From assembly GCA_963806035.1 (NCBI GenBank), contig CAWDWO010000008.1, positions 26,839-90,838 on the forward strand: a stretch of DNA of 64,000 nt, read 5' to 3'. Both the position numbers and the translations under genes were made by a program. How positions within the stretch are numbered: the stretch's first letter is position 1; every line of letters begins with the position of its first letter. Source of the DNA: Candidatus Krumholzibacteriota bacterium (lineage in GTDB: Bacteria > Krumholzibacteriota > Krumholzibacteriia > JAJRXK01). Of the stretch, positions 39,121 through 63,712 are shown one piece after another. Under the pieces are notes generated by a model that saw nothing but the letters and a program-made list of their open reading frames with translations, was not told the origin of the DNA and ran no database searches.

Positions 39121-39812
39121 CGAACACCGTCCGCAGCTGAGAGGCGCTCGCTTGCCTCGCCGTGGAAACGGCTGAAGTCGACGACTCGCTCAAAACGCTC
39201 GAGCAAATCGTGATCGTGGGTCACGGTGAGCAGAGTCGCTCCCTCCCGTTCCACGTACGAAAAAAGAATGTCCAGGACCCTGCCCTTGTTGCGCGGGTCC
39301 AGGTTTCCCGTGGGCTCATCGGCCAGAATCAGTCTGGGCCGGGGAAGTAGGGCGCGGCAGATGGCCACACGCTGCCGCTCGCCCTGAGAAAGCTGGTCGA
39401 CGTAACGTCCCGAGTCGTGGGAGATGCCCACCTCCGCGGCAAGCTCGGCCGCTCTCGCCTTCACCTCCGGCGCCAGCCTCAGGGCGGAGTGAATGCGGTA
39501 AGGAAGCAGGATGTTGTCGAGTACCGTGAGGTACTCCAGAAGTTCGAACTCCTGGAACACCAAGCCGATGTTGAGGATGCGAAAGGACCGTCTCTCTGCG
39601 TCGCTCAAGCCGCTCAACTCGGTGCCATCGTGCACGACCTTCCCCGCAGCGGGGGTCACGATTCCACCGACGAGGTTCAGAAAAGTCGTTTTGCCCGTTC
39701 CACTGGGCCCGATCACCGCCACCGATTCCCCGGTTTCAAAGCTGAGATCGGGGATCCGCAGACTGAACTCGCCGTCCGGATAGTGGAACTCGAGTTCACT
39801 GAGGGTGATCAT
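39117..39812 (-). CDS. ABC transporter ATP-binding protein (LolD/MacB type)
   Basis: Motifs [27 protein letters not shown] and VTHD. Confidence 0.95.
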
Positions 39813-46139: not shown

Positions 46140-46961
46140 CTAGCCCTTGGTCCCGCCCAGGGTGAGTCCGCCCACGAGGTAGCGGCTGAGGGCCAGGAAG
46201 AGGACCACCACCGGGATGGCCACCAGGAGCGAACCGGCCGCGTAATTGGCCCACTCGGTCTGGTAGGTGGAGGCCAGGCTCTCCAGGCCCAGAGGGAGGG
46301 TGTAGAGGTCCTGACTCACGATGAGCGCGCGGGCCACGATGAACTCGGCCCATCCGGCCATGAACGAGAACAGGGCGGTGATGACCAGGGCCGGGGCCGA
46401 AAGCGGCAGGGTCACGCGCCAGAACGCCCCCAGCTCGCTCATCCCGTCAATGAGGGCGGCCTCCTCCAGCGCGCGCGGAATGGTGTCGTAGTAGCCCTTC
46501 ATGGTCCAGATGCAGAAGGGAAGCGCGGTGGCGGTGTAGGCCAGGATGACACCATAGAGGGTGTTCACCAGACCCATGTTGCGCATGAGGAGATAGAGAG
46601 GGACGAGCAGCATGGTGGCGGGAAACATTTGGGTCATCAAAATCGAGAAGAGCCAGATTCCTCTCCCCCGCACCCGAAAGCGCGAGAGCGCGTAGGCCGA
46701 GGTCGAGGCGAGACTGACTCCGAGCAGCGAGGTGACGAGCGCCACCAGGAGAGAGTTGCGCATCCACAGCCAAAAGGGCTTCTCGAAGAGCACGGCGTGA
46801 TAGGAGTGGAGGGTGGCGCCCTTGGGGATGATGCTGAGTTCCGTGCTATAGAGTGCGTCGCCGGGACGCAGGGAGATCCCCAGGATCTGCACCACCGGGT
46901 ACAGCACGATCACCACGATCACGATCATCAAACAGTGCCAGCCGAGCACTCGGATTCGCAT
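46140..46961 (-). CDS. malG: Maltose/maltodextrin ABC permease, MalG-like
   Basis: AYALSRF, QMFP and the EAA loop KGYYDTIPRALEEAALIDG. Ends GGLTLGGTKG. Confidence 0.88.
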   Translation of the reverse strand: MRIRVLGWHCLMIVIVVIVLYPVVQILGISLRPGDALYSTELSIIPKGATLHSYHAVLFEKPFWLWMRNSLLVALVTSLLGVSLASTSAYALSRFRVRGRGIWLFSILMTQMFPATMLLVPLYLLMRNMGLVNTLYGVILAYTATALPFCIWTMKGYYDTIPRALEEAALIDGMSELGAFWRVTLPLSAPALVITALFSFMAGWAEFIVARALIVSQDLYTLPLGLESLASTYQTEWANYAAGSLLVAIPVVVLFLALSRYLVGGLTLGGTKG

Positions 46962-46971
46962 ACGGGGCTCC

Positions 46972-47862
46972 CTAGACCTGGTAGTTGACCTGACCGCGAC
47001 GCCAGTTCAGCCAGGTCAGACCGGCGAGGATGAAAAAGATCACCACGCTGAACGCCGCCGCGTAGCCGTAGCGATAGTAGTTGAAAGCGGCCTTGTACAC
47101 GTAGGTGACGAGGATGTGACTCTTGTCGGCCGGCTCTCCCATGTTCGTGACCAGCCAGATGACGTTCAGGTTGTTGAAGGTCCAGATGGTGCCCAGAATG
47201 ACCGCGGGGGCCATGACCGGCTTCAAGAGCGGGAGCGTGATGTAACGCAATTTCCAGAAGCGGCTCGCGCCGTCGATTTCCGCCGCTTCGTACATCTCCT
47301 CCGGAATGCTTTGCAGGCCCCCCAGCGCCACCACCATCATGAAGGGAAAGCCCAGCCAGATGTTCGTGATGATGGCCGCGGTGAACGCCCAGGTAGCGTT
47401 GGAGAGCCAGGGGATTTGCAGCGGAGCGAAGCCGAGAAGACTCGTGATCTTCTCCAGCCATAGATTGATGGCCCCGTACTCGAAGTTGAACAGCCCCCGC
47501 CAGCTCAGCGCGGCGATGTACTGCGGGAGAGCCCAGGGCAGAATGAGGAGCGCCCGGTAAACCGCGCGCCCGCGGTAGGGACGATTCAAGAGCAAGGCCA
47601 GTCCGACGCCCAGCAAGAGGTGGAAGAAGACGTTGACCGCAGTCCACACCACCGTCTTGAACAGGTAGATCCACAGTAATGGCTCGCCGAAGATGTGCGT
47701 GTACTGCCTGAGGCCTACGAAGCTCGCTCCGTCCTTGATGGTATAGAGGCCGAGATTGGTCAGTGAAATCCAGAAGTTGTAGAGGAAGGGCCAGGCCACG
47801 ATGAGCACCAGGACCGTGGCGGACGGCAGGATGAACCAGAAGAAGGTGCGGCCCCGATTCAT
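46972..47862 (-). CDS. malF: Maltose/maltodextrin ABC permease, MalF-like
   Basis: LILPWALP, NIWLGFPFMM and LQSIPEEMYEAAEIDGA. ATGA overlap with the SBP gene. Confidence 0.88.
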   Translation of the reverse strand: MNRGRTFFWFILPSATVLVLIVAWPFLYNFWISLTNLGLYTIKDGASFVGLRQYTHIFGEPLLWIYLFKTVVWTAVNVFFHLLLGVGLALLLNRPYRGRAVYRALLILPWALPQYIAALSWRGLFNFEYGAINLWLEKITSLLGFAPLQIPWLSNATWAFTAAIITNIWLGFPFMMVVALGGLQSIPEEMYEAAEIDGASRFWKLRYITLPLLKPVMAPAVILGTIWTFNNLNVIWLVTNMGEPADKSHILVTYVYKAAFNYYRYGYAAAFSVVIFFILAGLTWLNWRRGQVNYQV

Positions 47863-49088
47863 TGCCGCATCTCCTCGATCTTTCGCAGCGCCTCTTTTTG
47901 CATCCAGGGTCCGGCTTCTTCCGCGCGCATGCTCCCCGAAAGCACCTCCTGGTACGCGGGCCGAATCACGTCCCAAATGATCCGCATCTGCGGAACCACC
48001 GGCATGGGACGGCCCTTTTCCAGCTGGGCCCAGGATGCTTTCAGGATCGGGTCGTTGACGATCATGGGCCATTGGGCCACGTCTTCGCGACTGGGCAGGG
48101 CTCCTAGCTCTCTGGAAACCTCTCCGATTTGCGGCGCAGCGGTCAAATAGGCCAGGAGTTGCAGAACCGCCTCCTTACGCACGTCGGGAACGTTCACGTT
48201 CAACGAGTATCCCAGAGGAGAAGTCATGGGGGTGGGCCAGAGCCCGGTTTCACTGACGCGGGGAATGCACGCCAGACCGATGTCGATCCCCGCGTCCCGG
48301 TAGCTCTGCCAGGACCAGGGTCCGTTGATGGCGTAGGCTGCTTTGCCCTGCTTGAAGAGTGTGTCGGCCAGCGGGTAGTCGCAGCTCTTCGGGATCACCT
48401 TGCGGCGCACCAGCTTGCGCATGAATCCCATGGCCTTCGTCATCGCCTCCGAATCGAGAGTCGGGGCGCCACTCTCGTCCATGACCCAACCGCCGAACCC
48501 GCCCAACCAGGGAATCAGCCAGAACGGTTCGGACAGATTCATCACGACCCCGTAACGGTCGGTCTTCCCGTCGCCGTCCACGTCGACAGTGAGCGAGTCG
48601 AGTTGCGCCAGCCAGGCGTCGGTATCCAGCGCGGGATGGTCCACGTACTTGCGGTTGTAGACCAAGGTGAGATGATTGCCCACCTGGTCCGCGAGCGCGT
48701 ACACGTGACCGTCGAGAGTTGCCAGGGAAGCCGGGCTGAAGAGCGCCAGGGTGTCGGGCGGGATCACCGTCTCCAGCGGCACGATGAGACCCATGATGCT
48801 GAAGGGGCCGATCTGATCACCGGGCCCGTAGACCAGGTCGGGGCCGGAACCGGCCAGGGCCGCTGTCTGGTACTGCGTGCGCAATACTTCGGTCTTGAAG
48901 TGGTTGGTCTCGACGCGGATTCCCGGATGTTCCGCCATGAAGCGCTCGAGTTGGAGGTGCAGCACCCGCTGCTGCGCCGGATCCATCTGCTCCCAGAGGG
49001 TGATCCGGGAAGCATCCTCTCGCGGCGCGCACGAGCCCTGGCCGAGCGTGAGCGCGACGCATGCCAGAGAGAGAAGAACCCGTCGCAC
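47859..49088 (-). CDS. Maltodextrin-binding protein (MalE/MdxE-like extracellular solute-binding protein)
   Basis: Signal peptide or lipobox-like N-terminus. Motifs GSGPDL, LVYNRK, INGPWS and PMPVVPQMRIIWD. Confidence 0.85.
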   Translation of the reverse strand: MRRVLLSLACVALTLGQGSCAPREDASRITLWEQMDPAQQRVLHLQLERFMAEHPGIRVETNHFKTEVLRTQYQTAALAGSGPDLVYGPGDQIGPFSIMGLIVPLETVIPPDTLALFSPASLATLDGHVYALADQVGNHLTLVYNRKYVDHPALDTDAWLAQLDSLTVDVDGDGKTDRYGVVMNLSEPFWLIPWLGGFGGWVMDESGAPTLDSEAMTKAMGFMRKLVRRKVIPKSCDYPLADTLFKQGKAAYAINGPWSWQSYRDAGIDIGLACIPRVSETGLWPTPMTSPLGYSLNVNVPDVRKEAVLQLLAYLTAAPQIGEVSRELGALPSREDVAQWPMIVNDPILKASWAQLEKGRPMPVVPQMRIIWDVIRPAYQEVLSGSMRAEEAGPWMQKEALRKIEEMRQ

Positions 49089-49102: not shown

Positions 49103-49858
49103 CTACTTTGGGCGCACGTTGGCCACGGAGTTCTTGCCGCCGTAACCGTCATCCCGGCTTTCTGAATTGCCGGGGTCGGCCATCCACTTCCCGTCCACCA
49201 CGAACTTGTAGAGATGCTCTCCTTCGGGGAGTTTGATCGTCGTGCTCCAGACTCCGTTGCCACCGAGGGTCAACGCACTGGCGCTCGGATCCCAGTTCGA
49301 CCAATCACCGGTGACGTAGACGCTCTTGGCATCCTCGTATCCCTCGAGCGTGAATGTGTAGTCATAGCTGCGAGACACCCGCGAGGAGGTGTTGAGGCTG
49401 TAGCTCAGATACGCTTCGTCGTAGGCATAAGGCAATTGGGAAGGAACGACGAGAATGGAATTCTTCCCACCGTACCCGTCGTCGGTCGATTCGGGATTGC
49501 TGGGGTCGGCTTGCCAGTCGACCTGATCGATCACGTACTTGTACTGATAACGTCCTGGAGGCAGAGGAAGGGTGATTTCCCAGATCCCATCGCCATCGAG
49601 ATCCTTCATTGGATCGATCTTGGGATCGAGTCGATTGCCTGCCGCGGTGCCCAACCAGTTGTTGAACTCTCCCGCCAGATTTACTTCTCGCGCGGCGGGA
49701 GCCTTGTAACGGAAGGTGATACCGTGCGGGCCGGGTTTGGGGGGATCGAGACGATCTTCCACGAAACCCAGTAGCGAGCATCCGAGGCACAAGAACGCAA
49801 TCGCGCTCAAGAGGAAGCTCGAGGCGACTCGTCGAGGGATCAGAGTTCGAGCTGCCAT
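49103..49858 (-). CDS. Lipoprotein with two CBM48 (AMPK1_CBM-like) glycogen-binding domains
   Basis: Lipobox-like CLGC and two modules G(E/D)(F/W).NW...YK(Y/F)V.D..W..DP.N....DDGYGGKNS. Confidence 0.85.
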   Translation of the reverse strand: MAARTLIPRRVASSFLLSAIAFLCLGCSLLGFVEDRLDPPKPGPHGITFRYKAPAAREVNLAGEFNNWLGTAAGNRLDPKIDPMKDLDGDGIWEITLPLPPGRYQYKYVIDQVDWQADPSNPESTDDGYGGKNSILVVPSQLPYAYDEAYLSYSLNTSSRVSRSYDYTFTLEGYEDAKSVYVTGDWSNWDPSASALTLGGNGVWSTTIKLPEGEHLYKFVVDGKWMADPGNSESRDDGYGGKNSVANVRPK

Positions 49859-49870
49859 CGTCCAATCCTC

Positions 49871-52183
49871 CTAGAATCGCACGAATGCATTGATGACGAT
49901 CTGGGTTCGATCTTCGAGCTGTTGTTCCGCTTGGAGGATGTTGTAAGGGTGATAACGATCGAAACCCATCTCCTGCAAATACCGCTCGCGGAACTGCTGT
50001 CGTCCGTTCGGCCATCCCTGCGGGTCGATGACGAAGTAGTAGTCGGGATCCACCCCGAAACCCAATTGGATGCTCACGGGGTCTGACGGTTCCCACACCA
50101 GTCCCACGTAGGACGAGAAAAAGTCACCATTGAGCCCGACGACGGATTCACTCACTCCACCCTCAGCATCACTGTCGAGCCTGCGAATGGTGACACCATC
50201 CGGGCCGTCGTAATTGATGTAACGCAGGTTGATCCGCACGCCGAAACCGTCGTCCCCCGCGCTGAAGAGGGGCAGTTTGGCCTTCAGGATGAGCTCCTTC
50301 TGGTCCATGCGCGCGAAGTAACCCTGGGCCTGCAGCGGGTTGCCGATGTTCTGCGCGCTATCGAAGTTCAGGTAGCTGGCGGCCCCCACGTCCTGCATCG
50401 GGCGTGGATCGTCGTAGTTCAGCAGCTGAGAGTCCATTCCGAGGTACCAACGAGCGTTCTCGAAAGGATGCCAGCTCACGCGGGGGCTGATTCTCCACGC
50501 GGTGCGGTCGAAGGCGGCTGCCCCGGTGGAAAAGAAATCCACGTAGCCCAGGTTCTCTCTTTCGCGGCCGAGCAGGAAGTCGAGGTTCCAATCGCTCTTC
50601 TGCCACCCCACCGCCCAGCGAAGGTCGTGGGACGAGCGCTCGGGGGTGGGACCGGTCATCAGAATGTCGACACCATTCAGACCATTCACCTCGACGTAGC
50701 TGCCCATGACCTCGTTGGGAGCGAAGCGATCCATGTCTGCCACCATGGTTCCCGGCTGAGTGCGGTAAGTGATGTACTCTTCGTCGGCATCCATGCCCTG
50801 GGTGTATTGGTACTCGTAGCTGACTCTGGAGCTCAAACCTTCATGGTGGTAGTCCAGGGCGAATTTGCCACGCAGACCTCGCTCGTTTCCGATGCTGTAG
50901 TCCACCTTGCCATCGTCATAGAAATCTCCCTGTACGTCCTCGCGATTCCCCAGATCCCATCGAGCGTCATACCAGCTGTAAGCCAGGGCCAAGACCCCAC
51001 CGAAATCGCCCACGATCGGACTCTCCACATCCGCCGCGACCACATGGAAATCGTTGGCTAGCTCGTAGTTATCCGAGACGTTCTTTTCCTCACGCCCCGC
51101 GGCCATCTGATCCTCTTGGTGCTGCTCGAGGTAGTCGGGAAGGGTGTTGTTGGCGTTGGTAAAGTTGACCCACCAATCGCTCAGGAGGCCACGGTAAGTC
51201 ACCCCCATTTTGGTCTTTCCCACCGGACGCGTATAGCGCAGGCCCACGACGTCCGTCCCGGTGCGGCGGTCGAATCCCTTCGTCCCCACCGTGTTCTCGT
51301 CGGGGAGACGGGGAGCAAAGATGTCCTCGTCATAGGTGTCGCTGTAGCTCAAGCCGAGATCACCTCCGACCAGGTTCATGCGGAAAACCACACCCTGGGT
51401 TCCCTGGCCGAACTTTCGGTTCTCGTGGCGAATGGTCCCGCGCAGATCCTCGTGTCCCAACAGATGGAAGGGATCATCGGTGGAGAAGCACTCCTCGTTG
51501 TAGTTGGCCTGCACTGACCACTTGTCTTCGAGGAAATTCGCCTGCGCCTTGTAGAGTTCAGTCGTCAGCTCGTTAGGGTTTCCCTGACCCTGACCGGTTC
51601 GCACCTGCAAGCGGACGCTGGCCCAGAGCTTCTGGTTGAGATTCGCAGTGACGTCGAAGTTGTATTGATCATCAGGATGTTCAAAGCGAAGACGCACGTC
51701 TCCCGGCACGTCGGAAGTCGCGGGCATGATGGCACGGAAGAATCCGCCCAGATATACCTTGCTGTTGAGCGTGTTGTTGGAGATGACGGGAGTCCCCGAG
51801 GGAACCGGCGCCGCTTTGGTCGTCGACACGACGATCTTCCCCTGCGCATCGATGTCGATGAGGGAGTTTCCGTAGTCGCCTCCCGTACGCGGATTGCCCG
51901 GATCGGTCACCCAGGTGCCACCGTTGATGACGAACTTGTAGCCATAGCTACCCGGCTTCAGTTTCACCACCACCGACCAGGTGCCGTCTCCGTCCGGATC
52001 TTCCATCGGAGTTGCCGTCGTGTTCCATTCGTTGAAATCCCCGGCAAGCGCGACCGAGTTCGCCGATGCGTCGGTATACTCGAAGAGAATTCCTCCATCA
52101 ACCTGACTCACTTCTGCCAGCGCGGAACTCGCAACGAGCAGAAGTAGCAGTGCGAGTAGAGGGAGTAGGCATTTGCTGCGCAT
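49871..52183 (-). CDS. CBM48 domain fused to a predicted outer-membrane beta-barrel
   Basis: Signal peptide (ALA), CBM48 (LAGDFNEWN...YKFVINGGTWVTDP) and a P/T linker. About 630 aa of amphipathic strands end in QIVINAFVRF. Confidence 0.7.
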   Translation of the reverse strand: MRSKCLLPLLALLLLLVASSALAEVSQVDGGILFEYTDASANSVALAGDFNEWNTTATPMEDPDGDGTWSVVVKLKPGSYGYKFVINGGTWVTDPGNPRTGGDYGNSLIDIDAQGKIVVSTTKAAPVPSGTPVISNNTLNSKVYLGGFFRAIMPATSDVPGDVRLRFEHPDDQYNFDVTANLNQKLWASVRLQVRTGQGQGNPNELTTELYKAQANFLEDKWSVQANYNEECFSTDDPFHLLGHEDLRGTIRHENRKFGQGTQGVVFRMNLVGGDLGLSYSDTYDEDIFAPRLPDENTVGTKGFDRRTGTDVVGLRYTRPVGKTKMGVTYRGLLSDWWVNFTNANNTLPDYLEQHQEDQMAAGREEKNVSDNYELANDFHVVAADVESPIVGDFGGVLALAYSWYDARWDLGNREDVQGDFYDDGKVDYSIGNERGLRGKFALDYHHEGLSSRVSYEYQYTQGMDADEEYITYRTQPGTMVADMDRFAPNEVMGSYVEVNGLNGVDILMTGPTPERSSHDLRWAVGWQKSDWNLDFLLGRERENLGYVDFFSTGAAAFDRTAWRISPRVSWHPFENARWYLGMDSQLLNYDDPRPMQDVGAASYLNFDSAQNIGNPLQAQGYFARMDQKELILKAKLPLFSAGDDGFGVRINLRYINYDGPDGVTIRRLDSDAEGGVSESVVGLNGDFFSSYVGLVWEPSDPVSIQLGFGVDPDYYFVIDPQGWPNGRQQFRERYLQEMGFDRYHPYNILQAEQQLEDRTQIVINAFVRF

Positions 52184-52203
52184 AGGGCGATTCCTCCGGC
52201 TCT

Positions 52204-53733
52204 CTAGAACCAAAGCTTCAAGATGAGTTGCACGCGACGGTCATAGTCCTGGTCCTGGGCACTGGGACCTTCACTGACGAAGCTGTCGTTTTCCGCGAGG
52301 CGATCACTGCGCCCCCCATCACCGTATTCGATGTAGAAATCCGCGTTCTGCCAACCGCTGTAACGAGCCTGCACGAAGACGGTCCTTCTCGATTCTGTGT
52401 TTTCGTCAGCGTTGAGAAAGCGGGCAAAGAACTTCCATTTGGAAGTGGCGTTCAGATTGATTTCCATGCCGTAGCCCTGGGTGGCGAAACGGGTTCCGAT
52501 GTCGCGGAAGCGAACTTCGGGACGCACCGAAATGAGCTTGTTCTGGCCCTGAAGCTCCAGAATGAGATTCCGGTAGACCGACTCGCCGGTGGCGATGTCC
52601 TTGTTTCCCTCGAAGCGGCGGTATTTCACCCAGGAACTGAAGCCGCCCTTGAGCTCCATGTAGACTTCGGCTTCGTACTGCCGTTGATCGAATTTCTTGC
52701 CATCGGCTTCGATGCGTTCCATCGCCCGATTGCGCCAGTGGGCCAGGCGGATGTCCATCTGCTTGCGGGGAAGGCGCCACCACCCTTCCAGGTAGTACCC
52801 CTTGCGATCGTTGTCGCCCTCTCGGTTGCTGATGGCAGTATAGAAATTTGGTTCGCGGTACCAGGCGTCCGCCTTGATGGTCATTCTTCCGGCGCGTAGA
52901 TCTCGCAGCTCGAGCTGGTATCCGTTGCGGCCCTTGTCCTCCAGGGGAAGATTGGTCTCTCCCGAGTAATTGCGTCCCGCCTCACCCACCAGGGAGACGC
53001 GACCGAGGGGAGCCAGTGGCGAGATGAATTCGCCGAGAGCAATTTCGAAGTCCATTGCACCCGTGAGGTCGTAGTCTCGCGAGGTGCTCCCGAAGTCTCT
53101 GCGGCCGAAGGTGGTGCCCAGAAGGATTCTCCGGTCGGACAGATTCTTGTAGAAACGTCCCGCGAAAAAATTCTCGCCGTTCGTCGACTTCGTTCCGTAG
53201 TAGAAGAGTCCGCCGAAGCCTCTCAGGTTGCGCAGGTCGACCCGTAGCGCCTGGGACCTCGGTCCATCCAGGTAGTCCGCGAGACTGCTGCCATCGACGA
53301 CGTTCAGCAGGGGCTGGCTGAACCAGAAGCGGTCCTGATGACTGAATGCGACGATGTCCATGTAGGGGCGACGGAAGAGAATGTGGCCTTCGTTGAAGAG
53401 CAACTCGGGCCGGTGGGTGTCGATATTGTCCGCGTTTTGCGCAAGAGGCGGTTTGGTGAGGCGGTAGCGATTCGAATTGGCGCTCAGTTTGGTGAACGCT
53501 TCGAAGTCTGCCCAGGGCGAAGCCAACACGCGCAATTCGGCGTAGTGGTTGGGTTGATCGAACTGCCAGGTTCCGTCGAAGGCCTCTGCTTGCGAATAGG
53601 CCTCGTAAAAGCCCTGCAGCTCCACGGTTCCCGCGAACACTACCGGAGATGCGACCATGGCGGCCAGAACGGCCGCGCACGAGAGGATTGCCGCGCGCAG
53701 AGGGCAGTTCCATCGGAATCGAATCACGCGCAC
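52204..53733 (-). CDS. Predicted outer-membrane beta-barrel protein of unknown family
   Basis: Signal peptide (VFA), alternating aromatic/polar strands and a terminal beta-signal VQLILKLWF. Confidence 0.7.
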   Translation of the reverse strand: MRVIRFRWNCPLRAAILSCAAVLAAMVASPVVFAGTVELQGFYEAYSQAEAFDGTWQFDQPNHYAELRVLASPWADFEAFTKLSANSNRYRLTKPPLAQNADNIDTHRPELLFNEGHILFRRPYMDIVAFSHQDRFWFSQPLLNVVDGSSLADYLDGPRSQALRVDLRNLRGFGGLFYYGTKSTNGENFFAGRFYKNLSDRRILLGTTFGRRDFGSTSRDYDLTGAMDFEIALGEFISPLAPLGRVSLVGEAGRNYSGETNLPLEDKGRNGYQLELRDLRAGRMTIKADAWYREPNFYTAISNREGDNDRKGYYLEGWWRLPRKQMDIRLAHWRNRAMERIEADGKKFDQRQYEAEVYMELKGGFSSWVKYRRFEGNKDIATGESVYRNLILELQGQNKLISVRPEVRFRDIGTRFATQGYGMEINLNATSKWKFFARFLNADENTESRRTVFVQARYSGWQNADFYIEYGDGGRSDRLAENDSFVSEGPSAQDQDYDRRVQLILKLWF

Positions 53734-53744
53734 CTCACCTTCCC

Positions 53745-54641
53745 CTAGAAGCGCAAGTTCACGGAGGCCCGGTAGGTATTTCCGAGCCTCTCGTGCGTGA
53801 GAAGACTCAGATCGAGTCGAACCATGGAGACCAGAAGGCCCATTCCCGCAGTCAAATCCGAATCGTCGATTCCCGCCCGCAAAGCTAGGACGTCCTCGAA
53901 CCAGGCCTCAGCCCCGAAATGGGCCGTCCAATTCCCTCCCACGTAGGGTGGGATGTCGTGGTGCCGGACTTCCGCCGAGAGCCACACGATGTCCTCCAGC
54001 AGGTAGGCCATGCCGAAGCGACGCCGTCCTCCGATCTCCCTGACGTCAGTGCTGGTACTCACGAGCTGAATCGTGGGCCGCAGTAGATTCTCGAAGCTGG
54101 CTCCCACTTGGAGGTTCTCTTTCACGTGGTACAGCATGCCCAGGCTGAACGAGCTCTCCCACTGCGCGCCGTTGTAGTTGGGATCGTTCAGCGCCTCGTA
54201 GCCGGGGGCGGAGGCTCCGTAAAAGAGAGCGGAGACGCCGAAACTGAGCCTCTTCCCCAGCAGGGACTTGGCCACCCCCGCCGTGAGCACATCCTCGTGA
54301 TAGATGTCCTTCAGCCCGGTCCGCGTCCATCCGAATCCGAGGGCCCAGCTCCCGGCGAGCTGGGCGGAGGCGCCGAGGAAATCCTCGCTCAGACCGTCCA
54401 GTCCGTCGTAGAGCGAGGTTCTCATCCCCTCGACCTGCACGCCGTGTTCGTCACTCAGAATGGATGCGGGATTCCAGAAAATGTGTGAAGGGTCACCGTT
54501 CATGGCGACGAACGCACCGCCCATGGCCTGGCCTCTTGCCCCCACTTCCTGGTCGACGAAGTCCGCGCGCGCCGAAATCGGCAGTAGAAGCAGAGCGAAT
54601 GCGCTCAGAGACACAAGCCGCAGGCGGTGCCGGGTCTTCAT
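53745..54641 (-). CDS. PorV/PorP-like (FadL-fold) outer-membrane protein
   Basis: GARGQAMGGAFVA..DPS.IFWNPA, LALRAG and terminal ASVNLRF. ATGA overlap with the upstream giant gene. Confidence 0.82.
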   Translation of the reverse strand: MKTRHRLRLVSLSAFALLLLPISARADFVDQEVGARGQAMGGAFVAMNGDPSHIFWNPASILSDEHGVQVEGMRTSLYDGLDGLSEDFLGASAQLAGSWALGFGWTRTGLKDIYHEDVLTAGVAKSLLGKRLSFGVSALFYGASAPGYEALNDPNYNGAQWESSFSLGMLYHVKENLQVGASFENLLRPTIQLVSTSTDVREIGGRRRFGMAYLLEDIVWLSAEVRHHDIPPYVGGNWTAHFGAEAWFEDVLALRAGIDDSDLTAGMGLLVSMVRLDLSLLTHERLGNTYRASVNLRF

Positions 54642-57600
54642 CGCACCACCGCCACGGCTGCCGTCGCCCGTTCCCAGCGCTTGAGAAACTTCCCCAGCAC
54701 CTCGGCGCGACACACGTAGATTCCCATCGGCACGTAGTTGCCGCTCTCGTCCTTGCCGTCCCAAACCAATCCCTCGGTGCGGTTGGTCATCTCCCCCACT
54801 CCGGTGAAGAGCTGCAGAGTTCGGACCTTCTTGCCGCGCAGATCGAAGATCTCCACCACGGCCTGGTCGATCTCGTCGGGGATGACGTAGCTGATGTTGA
54901 GGTAATCGTGAATCCCGTCGCCGTTGGGAGAGAAAGGATTGGGACTCAGTTGCAAGCCGGTGACCAGGGTCTCGCTCTTCAGGTCACTGCCTTTCGTGAA
55001 CACTCCGTAGAGCCCGGTCTGCGCCACCTTCGCGGTGATGGTGCTCCCGGAGACTTCGCTGTGCCCTCCGACGAGTATCCAACGCCGAGCGGGCTCACTG
55101 TAACGGAAGTACTGCAGATTCGAGGGCTTCTCTCCGCCAATTTCGTAGTAGGGAAAGTGGATGGAGAACTCGGCGAGCTCGGGCAGATCCTTGATCTCCT
55201 CCATCGTGCTGTCGGCATGAACCCAGAACAACTGGAAGCTGCGCGCGGTCTCGAGGAAGCGATCCTGTGGCATCAAAACCGTTTCGTTGCTCCCCCCGTG
55301 GGTCGAGAGATCCAGATCCTCGCGGCCCAGAGCGCGGTAACGCAAGGAAAGCCGTGAGCTGTCGTCCTCGGCAAAGAGCTTGTCCACGTAGGTGCGTGGC
55401 AACCGCAAGCGGCTTCCTTCCGGCAGATCGAAGTCGACGGGATTGCTGTCATCGGGGAGATCTCCCGGACTCAGAACCTGCGTCACCTCGTCCACCGGTT
55501 TCTCGGGAACTTCGATGAGATACTCGACACTACCCTCGGGCGTCTTGTTTCCGACTCCGTCGGCGGCTTCGAAGGAGAGAATCATGTAGCGCACCGCTTC
55601 GGTAGTACCGTCCTCCTTCTGACGCTGCACTAGATTGGTAACGGAGGGATCGCTGAACTCATCCCATGGGATGTCGCCGATGTGCGTGATGCCGTCGCTG
55701 TCCAGATCACTGCGCAGCAGGCCCAAGGGGACTTCGCGAGCATTCGACCTGGGTTCGCCCACCCCTCGCCATTTCAGGGTCGCCGAGGTAACTCCACTTA
55801 CATCCTCGATCTTCACGATGGGCGAAACCGGAGCCTCTTTGAGAACAGCCCATTGCCGCAGTGCCCGGTTGGGGTCGTTCAGGAAGGTGATCTGCGGCGG
55901 AACCGTGTCGATGAGCTCCTCGGCCTCCAGCTCACACGAGACGAGGATCTTCGGATCGGCAAAACGTCGTTCCGCCTCGGGAGTGGTGAAATCGAGCTGT
56001 TCCTCTTGCGGGCGCCCGGGGGGCTTCGGCTTCCCCGTGGGATCCAGACCGGCGTGAGTCATGATGTCGATGATGTTGGCATCCCGCTCGCGATTCTGCT
56101 CCCCGTTCTTTCCGCCTCCGAACTGCCATTCGGGCCGTCCCTCGTTGACCCAGCGGATGCCTCCCCAGTTGCTGTCGTTCGAATCCCCATCGTGACCGCT
56201 CATCAGTACGATGAAATCCCACTGGGCGATCTTGGCCTTCAGCTCCTCGGCGGAGAGATCGGCGACCTCGAGCCGGCTCTTGTCCACGAACAGGTCGATG
56301 GTGTTGTCGACCGCGTTCGCGCAGAAGAAATAGTCCTCGTCGTTGCGGAAGATGTCCCAACTCCCCGCCGCCGAAGAATTGTTGCTACGCAACATTCCCT
56401 TCCACCAGCCGTCGGCGACCACGGCATAGTCCCAGGCGTCCTGGCGCGCGATGTCGGCATAGCGGTTGTCGGGAATCTTCGTCGATCCCTTTCCAGAGAT
56501 GTTGTCGATGAGCAGAACGACGTTCTGAAGGTTGAGATCGATCCGCGAGCCGCTGGGACAGAGCTGATCGCTGGGATAGGTCGCGTTCCAATCGGATGCG
56601 TCGGGCTCGGAGGGGTCGGTTACATCTCCCACCTTCACCCTGAACACGAGCTTGTCACCCGCGTCGAAGACTTCCATACCCTGCAGGTCGAAGACGCCCG
56701 GAAAGAAAACTCCGTTCGTGGGATAGGTGTAGTAGAGGAAGCGCTCGCCGGGCTGATTGGGGCCGTGGTCGTCACCCACCGCATCCTCGATGCTGAGGAT
56801 GGGCTCGAGCTCGGCCTGACCGGTGATCGCGAGCTCGGCACTCGCAGTCACTCGTTCTCCCGAGTTCAATTCGGAGGCGTGCACCATGATCGTCGCGTCA
56901 CCTTCGAGTTCACTGGGAGCGATGGTCAACAGAACGCTGTACAGTCCATCTCCGGCCACGAGATCGCCGTTCACTCCTGCATCATTCATCGGGGTCAGCG
57001 CGTCGCCCTTGAAACGCGAGAAGTCCGCAAAGACCTGGAAGAGCGGATTGGGGATGCTGGACGAGTCCACGACGGGACGGGCCGTGAGCAGGGTCGATTC
57101 GCCCTGGCTGATCTCCGGCGGAGTGAACTTGACCTCTTCGAGCTTCAGGGCTCCGGGCAGGATCTCGGGCACGAAGGTGGCCCAGTTCTTCAAGTCCACG
57201 CGCGGGGGCAGATTCTCCCACCACTCTCCAGCTCCTGCCGGAGGGACCATGTCCACGGTGGCGTCGTGCGGAACGGAATCCAGCGCCGGCCGTTTTTCGC
57301 CGCCATCCTCCTGCATGACGTAAGCCTGGAGTCTGAGCGTATCGACGCCGGCGACGAAATTCGCACCCAGAACTTTCAAGGGCATGCGGAAGGTCACCGT
57401 GGTCTCGTTCTTCGTGACCCAGCCCTGCGTCTTGCCGTTCACGTTGTCGTTGAACTCACTGATCCAGGTGCCCGCCACCATGTCGTACCACTGCCAGTCC
57501 GTGGGCGAACCGGTGGGAGGAGGGCGCCTGAGGTCAGCGTAGTCGTCCGCCGCATACTTGTAGGTGAATACCATATCGGGCAGAAGAGCGTGCGTGTAGT

Positions 57601-60368
57601 AGATGGGAAAGCCGAAATAGTCCTGGATCGCCCCCACCGGCGTTCCCGTCGACTCCAGCAGGAGAGCCATGTGCGCGCCATTGAAGTTGCTGTGGAAGGG
57701 CAGTTCCACCACCAGCGTGTCGTTCTGGACGAAGGCATAGAGCGCGGTCAGATCCATCTCGGGGTTGGAATTATGATTGCTGTCGCTCTCCGGAGCCCTC
57801 TCGTCCGTGGCGGCCAGTCCGAAGAGAACCGGCGTGCGCAAAGTGGTGCTCTGCTGCGGCAAACCGGCAAGGCTCACCGTGCACTCCACGACGCCGGTTC
57901 GATCCGCGAGCAGTTGAAGATCGAAGCTCGCCGAACCGGATTGATCGTCCAGAGTCACGGAGCTGGGAGCCGAGGCCACGACCTCCGAGGGACCCGCACT
58001 CACCGCAATGTTCGACCCCGGAAGCGGTGAGGCGTTGCCGTAGGCATCCGCGAGTTGAACCTTGTAACGGATGAGAATCTGGTCGTTCTCCACCCGCAGC
58101 TCCGAGCTGAGCAACAACTGCTCGGGCCGCTCCGGGAGTACCTTGAAGTTCAGTTCCGGCGAGACGATCTCCTTGCCTGAATCCGTGGTGCCCATCGCCT
58201 GCAGGGTGTAATCCCCGCTTACCGTGGTGGTAAAGGCCACGTCGCCGTCGGTTCCGAAGGACCCGTCACTCGCGGTGATCGCCACGCTCGGTCCGACGCC
58301 CGCCACGGCCGGAGTGATCTCGAAATTCACCAGGAACTCGTTCGAGAACACGGGATTTCCCGAGACGTCGAGAAGCCGGCCTTGCAGGGGGATGCTCTCC
58401 CCCGCCTTCATCTGGGTGCCCTGCGCCGTGAGCGCGATCTCCGCCGGCTCGATGGGGAGCACGCCAACTTCGAGCACGCCTTCCAGTCCCCCGCCCTGCG
58501 CGAGAAGCCGCACGACCTCCTGCGCATCATCAGTCAAGAGGAAGCGAGCCCTGCCGGAGGGAACCGCACCGGCTTGGGGCTCGAAGACCGCGGGGTCGGC
58601 CAGCGGCTGTGTGATGGCCGTCGTGTCCGCCGCGCTCCAAAGGACCACGTTGCCCTGGGTGGGATACGCGGGATCCATCGTGGAAGAACTCAGGCTCAAA
58701 CCCGGCAGACCGTAAATGGCCTCGTTGCCCTCATCGTCCACGAAGCCAAGCTCGACCACGAGAAAGGCGAAGAAGTTCTCGGCGGGAAGACTCACCGTGG
58801 TGAAGTCCGCCGTGATGCGATCCCCATTACCCTCTTCGTTGGCATCGAAGAACGCGACCCTCGTGGCCTGCACCGTGGAGAGGTCGAGAGTCCCCAGATC
58901 GACGGGGTTGTCGTTGTCGGGTACCCTCAGCTCCACCTCCAACTTCTTGTAGCCGGAACGCTCGGGATCGGCCGCCGTAATCGAGGAGGGCCAGCGCGGA
59001 ACGATGCTCAGGGTATAATTCCCCGCGGGGACGGGGCGCAGGCTCATGCTCAGTGGATCGCCCGGAGCAATGACGAAGCTTTGCTCGAACTCTCCCCCCA
59101 GATCGGTCTCACCCTTGATCTCTCCGGCCAACTCGAGGGTGCGCGTGAGCGTTTCCGGCCCATCCAGATACTGCAGTGCGAAATCGACTTCGCTCGTGAC
59201 TCGCAGCGCGTCGAAGTTGATGCCACTGAGATCCTCGTTCTCGCCCAGCGAAACGGTCTGAGGGGGGGCCAGGTATGCGTTGCTCTGCACCGAAACGGTG
59301 TAGGTGCCGGGTCCGAGCCGTACCAGCTGATAATCCCCGCCGCCGGGAGGAGTCTGATCGCGAGACGCTTCGGTTCCGTCGGGAAGCTTCGCGACCACAT
59401 CGAGTACGGAGAGCGTGTCGCTCAGATCGCTGAGCGTCACGGTGCCGGAGATGCTACCCGAGGGCGGCCAGTCCGGGTCGGGGGTTCCGTCACCGTCCGC
59501 ATCGACCACGAAACTGACCGGCCGATCGATCACCCGAAAGGTCGATTGCGCCGGGATCGATTCCTCGGACATTGAATCCCCACCGCCCACGATGTTGACC
59601 ACCAGGGCGATGGAAGCGCCGGCGGGAACGGTGGTGGTGAGGGAAGGATAGAGATTCGCGTAGAGATCGCTCCAGGGAATGAAAAACTCCAGCGCGGTGT
59701 TCCCCTGTTTGTCGAATCCCTGACAGGCCAGAGGGATCCGCGCAGGGCACGTTCACCCCCACCTGTTGGCTCTCGTCCTTGATCAGATTGACCGGCGCCG
59801 CGGGATCGAAGAGATCCAGAATGCCTCGATCGTAGGTGCCGGCCCAGGAGGTGAAACCGAAGTCGGCGCCGAACCCTCCCCCCACTTCGAGAGGACGCCA
59901 GAGATTGCGGCTGATCGCGCCCAGCGCGTCCTGGCCGATCTGGTCCATGTTGGTGATCCCGGTTCCCTGACCGAAATCCGCATCGAGATAGACGTTGACC
60001 GAGTTACTTCCCGTACCCGGACCGGCGGTGTCCCACAGGAAACCCTGCACGCCCACGTACAGACCCTTGGCGTCCCAGGTCACCCAGAGGCCCGTGAGGT
60101 CGTTGAAGGCGCCCCAGTTGCTGTCTCCCGCCGGATCTTCAACGAGCAGCTCGTCTGGTTGCCAGTCGTTGGAATCGGGCTCATCGTAGATGGGACCGTC
60201 GACGACGGGGGAGTTGTAGGTGGTAGCGCGTGCCGTGGTGGCCGGAACAATCTCCGTCGCAAAAAAGAGAGCCAAGAGGAGTGAAAGACGAACCGTGAAA
60301 CGGAAAAGGTTCGAAGGCAATTCTCTGAGTTCAGTCGAAGCGGAACTTCCGGGGGGAATACTCTTCAT
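54638..60368 (-). CDS. About 1,900-aa secreted multidomain scaffold (DOMON-like/glucodextranase-C, carboxypeptidase-regulatory-like, Ig-like) with a T9SS-like CTD; +1 frameshift near 59700-59752
   Basis: ORFs 59490..60428 and 54638..59602 join on removing one base (...DPSG/QGFDKQGNTALEFFIPWSDL...). Contains DAVGDDHGP...YTYPTNGVF.PGVFDL. Ends SPNPFSPNGDG.HD...IFDLRGKKVRTL...WDGKDESG..VPMGIY. Confidence 0.75.
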
Positions 60369-60514
60369 CGAAATCCCTTCGGCGCCCGCATTTGTCTTCG
60401 GGCGATGTAGATTCCGTCCGATTCGCAACCGACCTTGCGCCCGCCAAGCCTAGAGGAGGTTTCCTCGCGAGGTCAAGCCGCTCCTGTCTCGATCCCGTCC
60501 TTTGAGCGGTGCGC

Positions 60515-63500
60515 TCACTCCAGATTCAGAATGACCGCATCCACTCCGGGCACGGATACTTTCACCGCGCCGTGCGTGACCTTCTGCGCGTCGCCCTCGC
60601 CGTAGAGAAATTCCGCCTTGGCCCCATCGGAGATCCCGGCGTCTCCCAGCGGAACGGTGACCGAGGCGGCGGAATCCCCGTTGTTCAGCACCACGACGAT
60701 GTGCTCCTCACCGAGCTGACGCAAATAGGCAAACACCTGACCCTGAGTGAGCAGTGTCGTGAAATCGCCCAGTGAAAGCGCCTCGTGCTCATGACGCAGG
60801 GCGGTCAGGGCTTCGTAATGCTTGAGCGTCTGCTGTCTGGCCGGAGTCGTCATGCTCGACCAGGGCATGGTCCGGCGGCAGTCGGGATCTTTCCCTCCGG
60901 TGAGCCCGAGTTCATCCCCGTAATAGATGTGTGGAGCACCCACGTAGGTCATGGCGAAGGTCGCGGCCAGGCGCAGTCGTCGCGCGTCGTCCCCCGCCAC
61001 GCGGAGAAAGCGCTCCGTGTCGTGCGAGTCGATCAGATTCATCTGGGCCCGTACCGCCTGAATGGGATAGCGGGTGCGACCCGGCGCCAGCTCCTGGGCG
61101 AAGGTCGCGGCATTGGCCTTCTTCTGAGCGATCCACTTCACGACCGGGTCCTTGAAGTAGCGGTAGTTCATCACCGCGTCGAAGACCTCGGGCGTAATCC
61201 ACTGGGTCGCATCTCCCCAGATTTCACCGATCAGAATGTGATCTGGTTTGACCTTTCGGCATTTTTCCCTGAACAGATGCCAAAACCAGAAGGGAACCTC
61301 GTTGGGAACGTCGAGACGAAAGCCCGACACCCCCATCTTGCCCATCCAGTATTCGGGCGCCTCGAGCACGTAGTTCACGACGTCCCAGTTGGGATCGGCG
61401 TCCTCGATCTTGGTGATCCCATTCTCCTGCGCGTTGGGACGACTGAGGTCGTAATTGAGATTGGGATGCAGACCAAATCCCCACCAGCAGTCGTAGTAGT
61501 CGATGGCATTCTCTCCAGGAGGAAGCGGATAACTGGGCGGGCGCTTCTTCCACTCGTACCAATTGAAATACTTGCTGTCCTTCCAGTTCTTCAACGCGTC
61601 CTGGAAGGCAAAATGACAATCCCCCGTGTGATTGAACGCCATGTCCACGATTACCCGGATGCCGTGATCCAGACATTCCTTGGTGAACTCTTGGAACTCG
61701 GCCTCCGAGCCGAGGTGGGGATCCAGCTTCAAATAATCGCAGGGGTCGTAATGATGATTGCTGCGCGCGTCGGTGATGGGATTGAAGTAGATGATGCTGA
61801 CTCCGAGCTCGGCCAGATAAGGAATCTTCTGGCGCACCCCCTCGATGTCACCCCCGTAGAAACTGTAGTAGTCGGGTTTTCCGTCGGTGCGATAGGGGCT
61901 CTTCACCAGGCCGGAGACGTCGTCCCAGTCCTTTACGAGGTGAAAGTACTCGCCGTTGATTTTCCCGCTGGGCGGCAGGGTTTTGCGACCATCGTAGTAG
62001 GGCTCGTGAAAATCCTGGTCATTGCCGGGATCTCCGTTGGCGAAGCGATCGGGAAAAATCTGGTAGTAGATTCCTTCCTGCGCCCACTGCGGAATGCGAA
62101 AGGGCGGCAGCAGAGTCTGGTTGTACAAAACCCACTGACCGCTCGCGGGTTCCTCAGTGACGAAAGTTCCACCCGAGGTGGCGTAGCGATGGGCGTCGCC
62201 GTCCTTGTATTCGTAGGTAAAGTAGAGATCGCCACCGATCTTGTCGGGCTTCACGACGCTGCGGTAGGTGACGAAGACCGGATCTTTCGCCGCGGGCTTC
62301 ATCTCCACTACGACCGGATTCTCGCCCTCGATCTGGTAGTGCAGCAAAACTCGCTGGACATCGTCACGATACGCTCTGGCCTGAAACTCCAGATGCTCGT
62401 CGTCGACTGCATTGACCGTGGAATAATCGAGCGCGACCTGTAGACCCTTCAGATAGATTTTACCGTCCCCCACCTTCAAGTCCATCTTCTCGTAACTGGC
62501 GTCGACGGTGATGACGCTGTTCTTGCCACCGAACCCGTCGTCGGCGAATGCCTTCGCGCTTTCGTCGGTAATCCAATTCCCATCCACCACGAACTTGTAT
62601 TGGTACTCGCCGGGAGCCAAAAGCAAGGTGGCGGTATAGGTGCCATCGCCGTCGGGATCGGTCATCGGTGTCGCCCCGACGTTCCAGTCGTTGAAGGTCC
62701 CGGCCAGCATCACCTGGTTCACACCCGAGATGACCGGCTGGTAGGAAAAGGTCACGCTGAAGGTGCCGTGAACCGCTTCGTCTCCACCCGTCGTTGCCTT
62801 GGCTCCCTCCGGCTGAGTGCTCGCCGTACCGCCGGTCGTTTCCTTTGCCGTCGACGCTTCCTGGACACCCTCTCCCGCTTTGACGGTGAGTACGCTGTTG
62901 TGACCTCCGAAACCGTCGTCGACCGTCTCGGGATTGTCGGGATCTTCTTTCCAGCTTCCGTCGATGACGAACTTGTACTTGTAGGCGCCGGGCTTCAGCG
63001 GAATGGTCAGTTCGAAGATGCCGTCGCCGTCCGGGTCCTGCATCGGCTGCGCGTTGTCACTCCACGAATTGAACTCCCCTGCCAGATACACGCCCCCCGC
63101 GCCCGGAGCCAGGACGTGAAAGTGCACGTTGCGCTCCCCTGGCGGAGCCGGCGCGACTTCAGTCTTTTTGGCCGGCACGGCGGGCCCCTTCTCTTTGGGA
63201 GTAGGTGTCTTCGCGCTGGCACCGGCTGGAACGCCAACCACCAGCGCTTCCTGCCCGACATGAACGATGCTGTTCTTTCCCCCGTAACCGTCGTCGACGG
63301 TATCGGCGCTGTGGGGGTCGGCGATCCAGTTTCCGTCCGCGACGTACTTGTACTGGTAATCCCCGGGATCCAACTCGAGGGTCACCGTCCAGATCCCGTC
63401 ATCGCCCTTGCTCATGGGCTGTGCGTTAGGCGACCAACCGTTGAATTCTCCCGCGAGAAACACCTGGTTCGCGGCGTTCTCGAAGCGAAAGGTCACGGAG

Positions 63501-63580
63501 GCGGCGGTGGCGACGCTGGCGCCCAGCGCGAGCATGAGGATCGAAGTCAGGAGGATTCGAATCGCGCGAGAGGACATCAT
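60515..63580 (-). CDS. Exported GH13 alpha-glycosidase (neopullulanase/cyclomaltodextrinase-like) with three N-terminal CBM48 domains
   Basis: Signal peptide (ATA), YQIFPDRF, YGGDIEG and NHHYD. Intact catalytic motifs GFRLDVP, IGEIW and DSHDTER, plus DPDCRR. Confidence 0.92.
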   Translation of the reverse strand: MMSSRAIRILLTSILMLALGASVATAASVTFRFENAANQVFLAGEFNGWSPNAQPMSKGDDGIWTVTLELDPGDYQYKYVADGNWIADPHSADTVDDGYGGKNSIVHVGQEALVVGVPAGASAKTPTPKEKGPAVPAKKTEVAPAPPGERNVHFHVLAPGAGGVYLAGEFNSWSDNAQPMQDPDGDGIFELTIPLKPGAYKYKFVIDGSWKEDPDNPETVDDGFGGHNSVLTVKAGEGVQEASTAKETTGGTASTQPEGAKATTGGDEAVHGTFSVTFSYQPVISGVNQVMLAGTFNDWNVGATPMTDPDGDGTYTATLLLAPGEYQYKFVVDGNWITDESAKAFADDGFGGKNSVITVDASYEKMDLKVGDGKIYLKGLQVALDYSTVNAVDDEHLEFQARAYRDDVQRVLLHYQIEGENPVVVEMKPAAKDPVFVTYRSVVKPDKIGGDLYFTYEYKDGDAHRYATSGGTFVTEEPASGQWVLYNQTLLPPFRIPQWAQEGIYYQIFPDRFANGDPGNDQDFHEPYYDGRKTLPPSGKINGEYFHLVKDWDDVSGLVKSPYRTDGKPDYYSFYGGDIEGVRQKIPYLAELGVSIIYFNPITDARSNHHYDPCDYLKLDPHLGSEAEFQEFTKECLDHGIRVIVDMAFNHTGDCHFAFQDALKNWKDSKYFNWYEWKKRPPSYPLPPGENAIDYYDCWWGFGLHPNLNYDLSRPNAQENGITKIEDADPNWDVVNYVLEAPEYWMGKMGVSGFRLDVPNEVPFWFWHLFREKCRKVKPDHILIGEIWGDATQWITPEVFDAVMNYRYFKDPVVKWIAQKKANAATFAQELAPGRTRYPIQAVRAQMNLIDSHDTERFLRVAGDDARRLRLAATFAMTYVGAPHIYYGDELGLTGGKDPDCRRTMPWSSMTTPARQQTLKHYEALTALRHEHEALSLGDFTTLLTQGQVFAYLRQLGEEHIVVVLNNGDSAASVTVPLGDAGISDGAKAEFLYGEGDAQKVTHGAVKVSVPGVDAVILNLE

Positions 63581-63712
63581 GGGGACTCTCCCGATAAGAA
63601 GAGGATGACGGCAGACGAAAAAGTCTGAGCCAGGGACAGAAATCCTAGCATTCCGGGGAGTCGAAAGAAAGAAAAGGAACCCCAAAGCTCCGATTTGAGT
63701 GCCTACTTCCCC

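Follow-up and report, generated by a model that had tools for sequence, protein, structure and literature searches.

We analyzed a 64,000-nucleotide stretch of DNA (the window) from a Candidatus Krumholzibacteriota bacterium (GenBank assembly GCA_963806035.1, contig CAWDWO010000008.1, positions 26,839 to 90,838 of the forward strand; the genome assembly is 2.67 Mb and 93.7% complete). Two neighboring genes in the window encode large outer membrane beta-barrels, designated barrel 1 and barrel 2, and barrel 2 carries a carbohydrate-binding module (CBM) of the CBM48 family at its N terminus. The genes lie on the minus strand in the order GH13 enzyme, type IX secretion system (T9SS) cargo, PorV-like barrel, barrel 1, CBM48-barrel 2, CBM48 lipoprotein, MalE, MalF, and MalG, and from the PorV-like gene through MalG the gaps are 10 to 20 nt or the genes overlap. 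The reading that we favor, at a probability of roughly 0.55, is that the two barrels are the channel-forming core of a conserved outer membrane cassette for the uptake of alpha-glucans (starch, glycogen, or maltodextrin) in which the channels are plugged or gated by CBM48. The two genes and their parts are as follows.

52204..53733, minus strand: barrel 1 (OMP509), a 509-amino-acid open reading frame (ORF) belonging to an unnamed family, with a signal peptide and a beta-barrel of about 24 strands, C terminus …LILKLWF
49871..52183, minus strand: barrel 2 (CBM48-OMP), 770 amino acids, with signal peptide, CBM48, linker, and a barrel of about 22 strands, C terminus …INAFVRF
51839..52114, minus strand: CBM48 (AMPK-beta-type glycogen-binding) module of barrel 2, about residues 24 to 115 of the 770-amino-acid form
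51764..51838, minus strand: linker from CBM48 to strand 1 of barrel 2, with the motif PSGT…SN(T/N)…S(K/R)V, shared throughout the family, directly ahead of the barrel
49874..51763, minus strand: barrel domain of barrel 2, about 22 strands by DSSP

Barrel 1 represents an unnamed family

Barrel 1 begins with a Sec-type signal peptide, MRVIRFRWNCPLRAAILSCAAVLAAMVASPVVFA, followed by GT at the mature end (N terminus read by eye). Its AlphaFold2 model, built from a 28-sequence family alignment, is a barrel whose strands span residues 36 to 508 (predicted local distance difference test score, pLDDT, 82.3; predicted template modeling score, pTM, 0.70). The connections have a median of about 8 residues past odd strands and about 3 past even strands. 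By fold it is closest to FimD and PapC, usher barrels with 24 strands (Z 17.4 and 17.3); barrel 1 superposes on 3ohn_B with Z 17.4 and a root mean square deviation (rmsd) of 5.4 A over 368 aligned residues and on 7lhg_C with Z 16.4 and rmsd 4.0 A over 383, and the Foldseek TM-score is at best about 0.5.

Searches of Pfam and NCBIfam with barrel 1 gave zero family matches, and none of the 27 other members of its family alignment had a match at an E value of 10 or less. Barrel 1 was rejected as a chaperone-usher usher, having no Pfam match of any kind and a superposition restricted to the barrel. It was also rejected as a member of DUF6029 (PF19494); at E values up to 10 that profile matched none of the 28 family members, and it matched nothing in the genome. 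The feature and structure look-alikes in the Atlas are a lead only. Barrel 1 is single-copy within the genome. A form of barrel 1 fused to CBM48 was not found among 29 relatives of 268 to 900 residues (similarity and profile searches returned the same 29), nor did the long open frames 5' of four homologues in the phylum contain Pfam domains.

Barrel 2 carries a CBM48 module at its mature N terminus

The ORF lister began barrel 2 at a TTG at 52213 (49871-52213, 780 amino acids). The ATG at 52183 is the more likely start, because GGAGG lies seven bases upstream of it and the 770-amino-acid form is held in a public protein collection. With this start the genes for barrels 1 and 2 are 20 nt apart and do not overlap. 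The Sec-type signal peptide is MRSKCLLPLLALLLLLVASSALA, followed by EV (also read by eye), and CBM48 stands directly at the mature N terminus.

The module was matched by two Pfam families over residues 40 to 117, PF16561 (E 8.4e-10; 39.2 bits, cut-off 26.8) and PF02922 (E 2.6e-9; 37.7 bits, cut-off 22.4). A profile search of the PDB returned glycogen-binding domains (GBDs) of AMPK beta at E 5e-11, and the modeled module (model residues 22 to 111; pLDDT 81 to 91) superposes on 4aef_B with Z 12.9 and rmsd 1.7 A over 87 residues. Its FN.W and YKF..DG.W stretches line up with the AMPK beta GBDs. The W, K, W, and N columns, which we take to be the sugar-binding residues, are invariant or nearly so in the 20-sequence barrel 2 alignment and in a 6-row alignment of the lipoprotein encoded next to it.

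A P/T-containing linker (…STTKAAPVPSGTPVISNNTLNS…) lies 3' of CBM48; pLDDT falls below 50 at model residues 120 to 140. Across 41 aligned family members the spacer from the last CBM48 strand to the barrel has about 19 to 30 residues, and an SNT motif before strand 1, SN(T)…S/P-K/R-(V/I), is evident in most of them. In the five-sequence barrel-only alignment, positions P1, S2, G3, T4, S8, and N9 of the linker motif are invariant. The pre-strand-1 segment PSGT…SNT…S-K/R-V is kept even in distant relatives of barrel 2, and the remaining linker is variable. The segment could be a docking strand.

The AlphaFold2 model of barrel 2, from the 20-sequence family alignment, has pLDDT 78.6 and pTM 0.71, with the barrel at residues 142 to 769. 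Connections are 8 to 53 residues long past odd strands and 2 to 8 past even strands. The widest cover of residues 140 to 770 is by plugless barrels of TonB-dependent transporters (TBDTs) and SusC, namely 5t3r_D (Z 14.3, 431 aligned) and 4epa_A (Z 14.0, 388 aligned). Like barrel 1, barrel 2 is single-copy within the genome.

The preliminary description of this locus, made from the DNA letters, had taken both proteins for secreted barrels ending in Phe and had placed an N-terminal CBM48 on a P/T linker in the larger one. All of this is borne out: both proteins have leaders, the terminal …LILKLWF and …INAFVRF, and AlphaFold2 barrels, and the CBM48 scores above the Pfam cut-offs, has the matching fold, and is followed by the P/T stretch.

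Neither barrel matches a known transporter family

Both proteins have what is generally found in outer membrane barrels, namely a signal peptide, a C-terminal aromatic residue, a closed barrel, and alternating long loops and short turns, and all leading fold matches of both are outer membrane or organellar barrels. Both are large in the AlphaFold models, with about 24 strands in barrel 1 and about 22 in barrel 2 as we counted them from DSSP strings. The long loops follow odd strands and the short turns follow even strands, which places both termini and the CBM48 attachment at the periplasmic end. In the models, CBM48 joins barrel 2 on the side of the short turns and of the two termini, a side that faces the periplasm in canonical outer membrane proteins.

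The preliminary description had recognized no TonB plug or LamB motif in either protein, and profile searches agree: Plug (PF07715), TonB_dep_Rec_b-barrel (PF00593), and LamB (PF02264) have no match in either barrel at E values up to 0.1, PF00593 has none in the 38 relatives of barrel 2 that were scanned, and among the barrel families of Pfam and NCBIfam there is no match to a characterized porin or TBDT. The barrels were rejected as TBDTs on these grounds and on hhalign probabilities of 0.07% (barrel 2) and 1.6% (barrel 1) against the genome's own four TBDTs. The Plug profile does match 4 genes elsewhere in the genome. Only barrel 2 shares the 22-strand fold of TBDTs, and the TBDT barrels (Z 13 to 14.3, 388 to 431 aligned) are tied with other barrels among its matches. 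LamB/maltoporin was rejected as well; PF02264 matched neither these proteins nor anything in the genome (93.7% complete), and the barrels have about 22 and about 24 strands versus 18. Kinship between the two barrels was not detectable (BLASTP E 2.5, hhalign probability 1.3%). A PDB sequence search with both family profiles returned CBM48 entries only, plus LptC at E 0.2, which was treated as noise.

A CBM48 lipoprotein is predicted to plug barrel 1

The gene downstream of barrel 2 encodes a lipoprotein.

49103..49858, minus strand: lipoprotein with two CBM48 modules (Pfam); lipobox and tether conserved

The complex of barrel 1 (residues 35 to 509, 28-row alignment) with the mature lipoprotein (6-row alignment) was predicted three times. 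The interface score ipSAE was 0.68, 0.77, and 0.63 (median 0.68), versus 0.00 for the highest-scoring of 3 controls. At least 58% of the contacts agree between runs, and the pLDDT of the partner is at least 77. The mark for ipSAE is reached by 116 of 157 solved complexes and by 2 of 215 mismatched pairs, which is a rough guide only, our own alignments having been used here.

Confident contacts fall on nearly every strand of barrel 1, where the strand ends meet the short turns (such as residues 200 to 202, 362 to 364, and 398 to 400), beside the termini (40, 44, and 504 to 508), and on the invariant loop RFWFSQP (135 to 141). In the lipoprotein they are limited to the tether after the Cys (6 to 10) and to the first CBM48 with its trailing linker (26 to 137). 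The second CBM48 makes no confident contact and is left free in the model. To reach almost all strand ends, both termini, and the RFWFSQP loop at once, a body must lie within the lumen at its periplasmic end; the first CBM48 with the tether is therefore predicted to plug the barrel 1 lumen from that end.

The predicted contact residues are more often conserved than other residues: 39 of 65 are at least 90% conserved versus 105 of 410 other residues (Fisher p 1.3e-7). The lipoprotein positions that align with FN.W and YKF..DG.W of the AMPK beta GBDs are invariant, and some of them are within the interface (41 and 87 to 89). The lipoprotein itself offers an observation that does not depend on the model. 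In 13 of 14 loci of the phylum it is shorter and consists of the lipobox, the conserved tether, and one CBM48, which is the part predicted to be the plug. The tether consensus is C-x4-(I/V/L)-(R/E/K)-(N/D/K)-R-L-P-x-P-H. The second CBM48 is particular to the host's family of the phylum; in those 13 of the 14 other loci, the protein stops directly behind the first module.

The barrels, the PorV-like gene, and the lipoprotein form a conserved cassette

Among 201 genomes of the phylum, barrel 1 was found in 74 and barrel 2 in 71, all of them within the 74, so that none of these genomes has the CBM48-barrel alone. Of the matches in the three genomes with barrel 1 only, at least two sit at the edge of a contig; one match is weak and partial. 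The counts given here are descriptions rather than statistics, since related genomes are not independent, and a metagenome scan contributed 6 further loci only. The full gene order was found in all 4 genome loci from related metagenome-assembled genomes. In 26 of 29 short loci the gene 3' of barrel 1 is the CBM48-barrel, and the other 3 stop at a contig edge. The order PorV-like, barrel 1, CBM48-barrel, CBM48 lipoprotein was seen in all 14 larger loci (14 genomes), which also contain the GH13 gene (12 of 14), MalE (10 of 14), and a homologue of the large cargo (11 of 14). The PorV-like barrel belongs to the conserved core and is more than a mere partner of T9SS cargo, because its gene is immediately upstream of barrel 1 in 29 of 29 short and 14 of 14 larger loci.

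The fusion of barrel 2 to a CBM is obligate. A barrel-only profile made from five sequences retrieved 69 representatives at E values up to 1e-3 among 1.84 billion proteins. Modules were sought in the 38 of these that have at least 635 amino acids and lie outside the alignment, leaving out 3 close relatives and 28 fragments of 84 to 466 amino acids. Every one of the 38 full-length distant relatives has an N-terminal starch-binding module; eight have two, and one (P0063) scores best as CBM20, not CBM48. The few relatives with source names come from Eisenbacteria or Krumholzibacteriia and are annotated as hypothetical or "glycogen-binding domain-containing."

Neighboring genes

The other genes of interest in the window are these.

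53745..54641, minus strand: PorV/PorQ/FadL-like small barrel, start MKTRHRL…, right after the cargo stop, as in orthologues
54638..60428, minus strand: large T9SS cargo gene with a Glucodextran_C-like module and a C-terminal sorting domain (Pfam, NCBIfam)
60515..63583, minus strand: GH13 alpha-amylase-family enzyme with three N-terminal CBM48 modules (Pfam)
47859-49088, minus strand: MalE-like binding protein, directly downstream of the lipoprotein
46972-47862, minus strand: MalF-like permease
46140-46961, minus strand: MalG-like permease
43471-45933, minus strand: second T9SS cargo, 820 amino acids
42183-43334, minus strand: secreted CBM20 protein, 383 amino acids

The PorV-like protein matches the NCBIfam profile PorV_fam with E 1.3e-17 and 64.4 bits, below the cut-off of 90; the best stretch is residues 67 to 148, in the N-terminal part of a 339-amino-acid reading, one of two. 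ORFs of its orthologues have 296 and 301 amino acids.

The large cargo gene is split, a 312-amino-acid frame (59490-60428) overlapping a 1,654-amino-acid frame (54638-59602) in a different frame. The orthologues are in one frame in all four related loci, and in two of these they are single ORFs of 1,941 and 1,902 amino acids. Read against these orthologues, the split is a frameshift or assembly error near 59490-59602. The "choice-of-anchor X" profile matches the 820-amino-acid cargo with 34.9 bits (cut-off 25) and the 1,654-amino-acid cargo with 23.9 bits, just under the cut-off. For the two T9SS cargo proteins, a PDB sequence search returned no relative of solved structure, and no catalytic domain was recognized.

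The leader of the GH13 enzyme is of the signal-peptidase-I type, with ATA and AS on the two sides of the cleavage site, and the protein has no lipobox and no T9SS tail. By default it would be periplasmic, and this points to long glucan chains arriving in that compartment.

The MalE-, MalF-, and MalG-like genes (46140..49088) are 10 to 14 nt apart or overlap. Among the ORFs scanned, the operon has no gene for a MalK-type ATPase of an ATP-binding cassette (ABC) importer; the closest ABC_tran gene (39117-39812) adjoins a MacB-like permease. In the genome as a whole, the Plug profile has 4 matches, the TBDT-barrel profile 3, TonB_C 4, and SprA_N 1.

A proposed CBM48-gated route for alpha-glucans

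The preliminary description had proposed that the locus encodes a new glucan channel. What stands is the setting: the barrels belong to unnamed families, lie in an alpha-glucan locus directly upstream of the MalEFG genes, and have no plug or LamB signature. From the observed folds, domain content, gene linkage, and co-occurrence we infer transport, its direction, its substrate, and the placement of a plug within barrel 2. Apart from the CBM48 of barrel 2, which is at the plug position, neither barrel includes a domain that could close its lumen. In barrel 1, the first CBM48 of the lipoprotein, whose gene is the second one downstream, would fill the lumen from the periplasmic side. The CBM48 of barrel 2, in cis and where a TBDT has its plug, would sit within the barrel to which it is fused or at the periplasmic mouth of that barrel. 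It is probably a cis plug because of its position, the short conserved linker, the empty barrel of TBDT size, and the obligate fusion.

The favored model would operate as follows. Binding proteins anchored by the T9SS would hold glucan chains at the cell surface, and the chains would enter the barrels, where the sugar-binding face of the CBM48 plug would engage them. On reaching the periplasm, they would be cut by the GH13 enzyme with its three CBM48 modules, and the products would be taken up via MalE and MalFG. The GH13 enzyme and MalE would thus be the sink. Passage through the barrels is probably passive, driven by periplasmic binding and hydrolysis, because a Plug domain is lacking and no space for a TonB box is evident. 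The binding face of CBM48 set against the barrel wall is a candidate selectivity filter.

These considerations can be extended, tentatively and with more doubt than conviction, to a third class of importer beside porins and TBDTs. Members would be giant barrels plugged by a carbohydrate-binding module, in cis or in trans, with the binding platform against the wall filtering chains without TonB energy and with directionality given by CBM48-rich periplasmic proteins and hydrolysis. If true, one operon displays the same design twice, in a split form and a fused form.

Several points weigh against the favored model. The low confidence of the barrel 2 linker leaves the position of its CBM48 unfixed by the model. 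The fold matches of barrel 2 to TBDT barrels, Tom40, FimD, and maltoporin are within one Z of each other, and the strand counts are our own reading. The organism carries TonB and four TBDTs, so a cryptic link to TonB may exist. For the complex, the score is the model's own confidence, which supports binding without showing it, and the controls were unrelated proteins rather than other CBM48 modules, of which the locus holds seven. Conservation of the interface was judged on the same alignment that the model used, and residues lining a lumen may owe their conservation to something else. In this superphylum, lipoproteins can be exposed at the cell surface, which would conflict with a periplasmic plug.

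It is possible to explain the same genes without a plug. The barrels might be open passive channels with an unoccupied lumen, and the fused CBM48 might be free in the periplasm as a Brownian ratchet or a hand-over point to MalE. We consider this unlikely. The preliminary description had made the CBM48 a periplasmic ratchet, and its attachment at the periplasmic end, where by the loop and turn pattern it meets strand 1, is in accord with that idea, as are the low-confidence linker, 19 to 30 residues long across the family, and the second CBM48 of the lipoprotein, which would be free. However, barrels of 22 and 24 strands without plugs would leave the outer membrane with very large holes, the pre-strand-1 segment is conserved family-wide, unlike a mere spacer, and the sole complex tested places the CBM48 of the lipoprotein in the lumen of the other barrel. 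By analogy with that complex, a lumen plug or selectivity insert is at least as likely a role for the fused CBM48 as a free ratchet.

Anchoring, cryptic TonB coupling, and polysaccharide export are less likely. That the barrels serve as membrane anchors or an assembly platform for surface starch-binding modules and T9SS cargo, with sugars entering elsewhere, would agree with the constant presence of T9SS cargo and the PorV-like barrel in the cassette and with the SprA match in the genome. It is quite improbable, in that anchoring does not need barrels of 22 to 24 strands, the CBM48 modules attach at the periplasmic end, the cassette in the host's family runs straight into MalEFG, and no other candidate maltodextrin channel was found, the genome having no LamB match. 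We give still less credence to a cryptic TonB-dependent system in which TonB would pull the CBM48 plugs via a motif unlike the known TonB box. An N-terminal domain ahead of a 22-strand barrel does mirror TBDT architecture, the genome has four TonB_C matches, and the pre-strand-1 motif and lipoprotein tether are conserved; but there is no Plug domain or profile likeness to TBDT barrels, and mature barrel 2 opens directly with CBM48, with no extension for a TonB box. The least probable alternative, to our minds very remote, is that the genes serve to export an exopolysaccharide resembling alpha-glucan and that the barrels are its secretion porins. DUF6029 clusters are among the Atlas look-alikes of barrel 1, and in the excerpted text of PMC9603273 DUF6029 is linked by HHpred to Wzi-like polysaccharide porins. 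However, the DUF6029 profile fails throughout the barrel 1 family and the genome, as described above, and the locus has a hydrolase and an import ABC system and, among the ORFs scanned, no synthase, OPX protein, or Wzx/Wzy.

Significance and comparison with known systems

To our knowledge, how polysaccharide fragments cross the outer membrane of diderm bacteria outside the Bacteroidota and Proteobacteria is largely unknown. About one in three of the Krumholzibacteriota genomes sampled has the cassette. Should the CBM48-plug model hold, it provides a testable, TonB-independent mechanism for importing long glucan chains and a natural case of a binding module reused as a channel gate. In the parts of the literature available to us, we found no published description of a CBM-fused or CBM-plugged outer membrane barrel or of the cassette. 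The excerpts of a 2026 review of bacterial glycoside transporters (PMC13543919) include only SusC-type TBDTs and maltoporin, and "CBM" never occurs in them.

The cassette resembles the Sus system of Bacteroides (SusC with SusD, SusE/F, and SusG) in having a 22-strand barrel with an N-terminal domain that would close it, glycan-binding lipoproteins, an amylase, and surface proteins, and the SusC-like barrel 5t3r_D superposes on barrel 2 (Z 14.3, 431 residues). In contrast to Sus, it has no Plug domain, no SusD homologue, and no evident TonB box, and its barrels resemble TBDT barrels neither in sequence nor in profile comparisons. A CBM48 would take the place of the plug, there are two unrelated barrels rather than one, and the products feed a MalEFG ABC importer.

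The maltose system of Escherichia coli (LamB, MalS, and MalEFGK2) likewise combines an outer membrane barrel, a periplasmic amylase, and an importer of the MalE/MalF/MalG type, and both systems appear to be TonB independent. LamB, however, is a trimeric porin of 18 strands per barrel that has an aromatic slide, whereas the barrels of the cassette have 22 to 24 strands and no PF02264 match, and sugar recognition would come from CBM48.

Barrel 1 is closest in fold to the ushers FimD and PapC, 24-strand barrels that a globular plug closes. Unlike ushers, barrel 1 has no usher profile match, no internal plug, and no N- or C-terminal usher domains, and there are no pilus genes in its context.

CymA of Klebsiella oxytoca (PDB 4d5b) is among the weaker fold matches. 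This alpha-glucan channel works without TonB, and the substrate opens it by displacing a mobile gating element. CymA has 14 strands, with a short peptide at the N terminus as the gate. The barrels of the cassette differ in having 22 to 24 strands, and their gate would be a folded CBM48.

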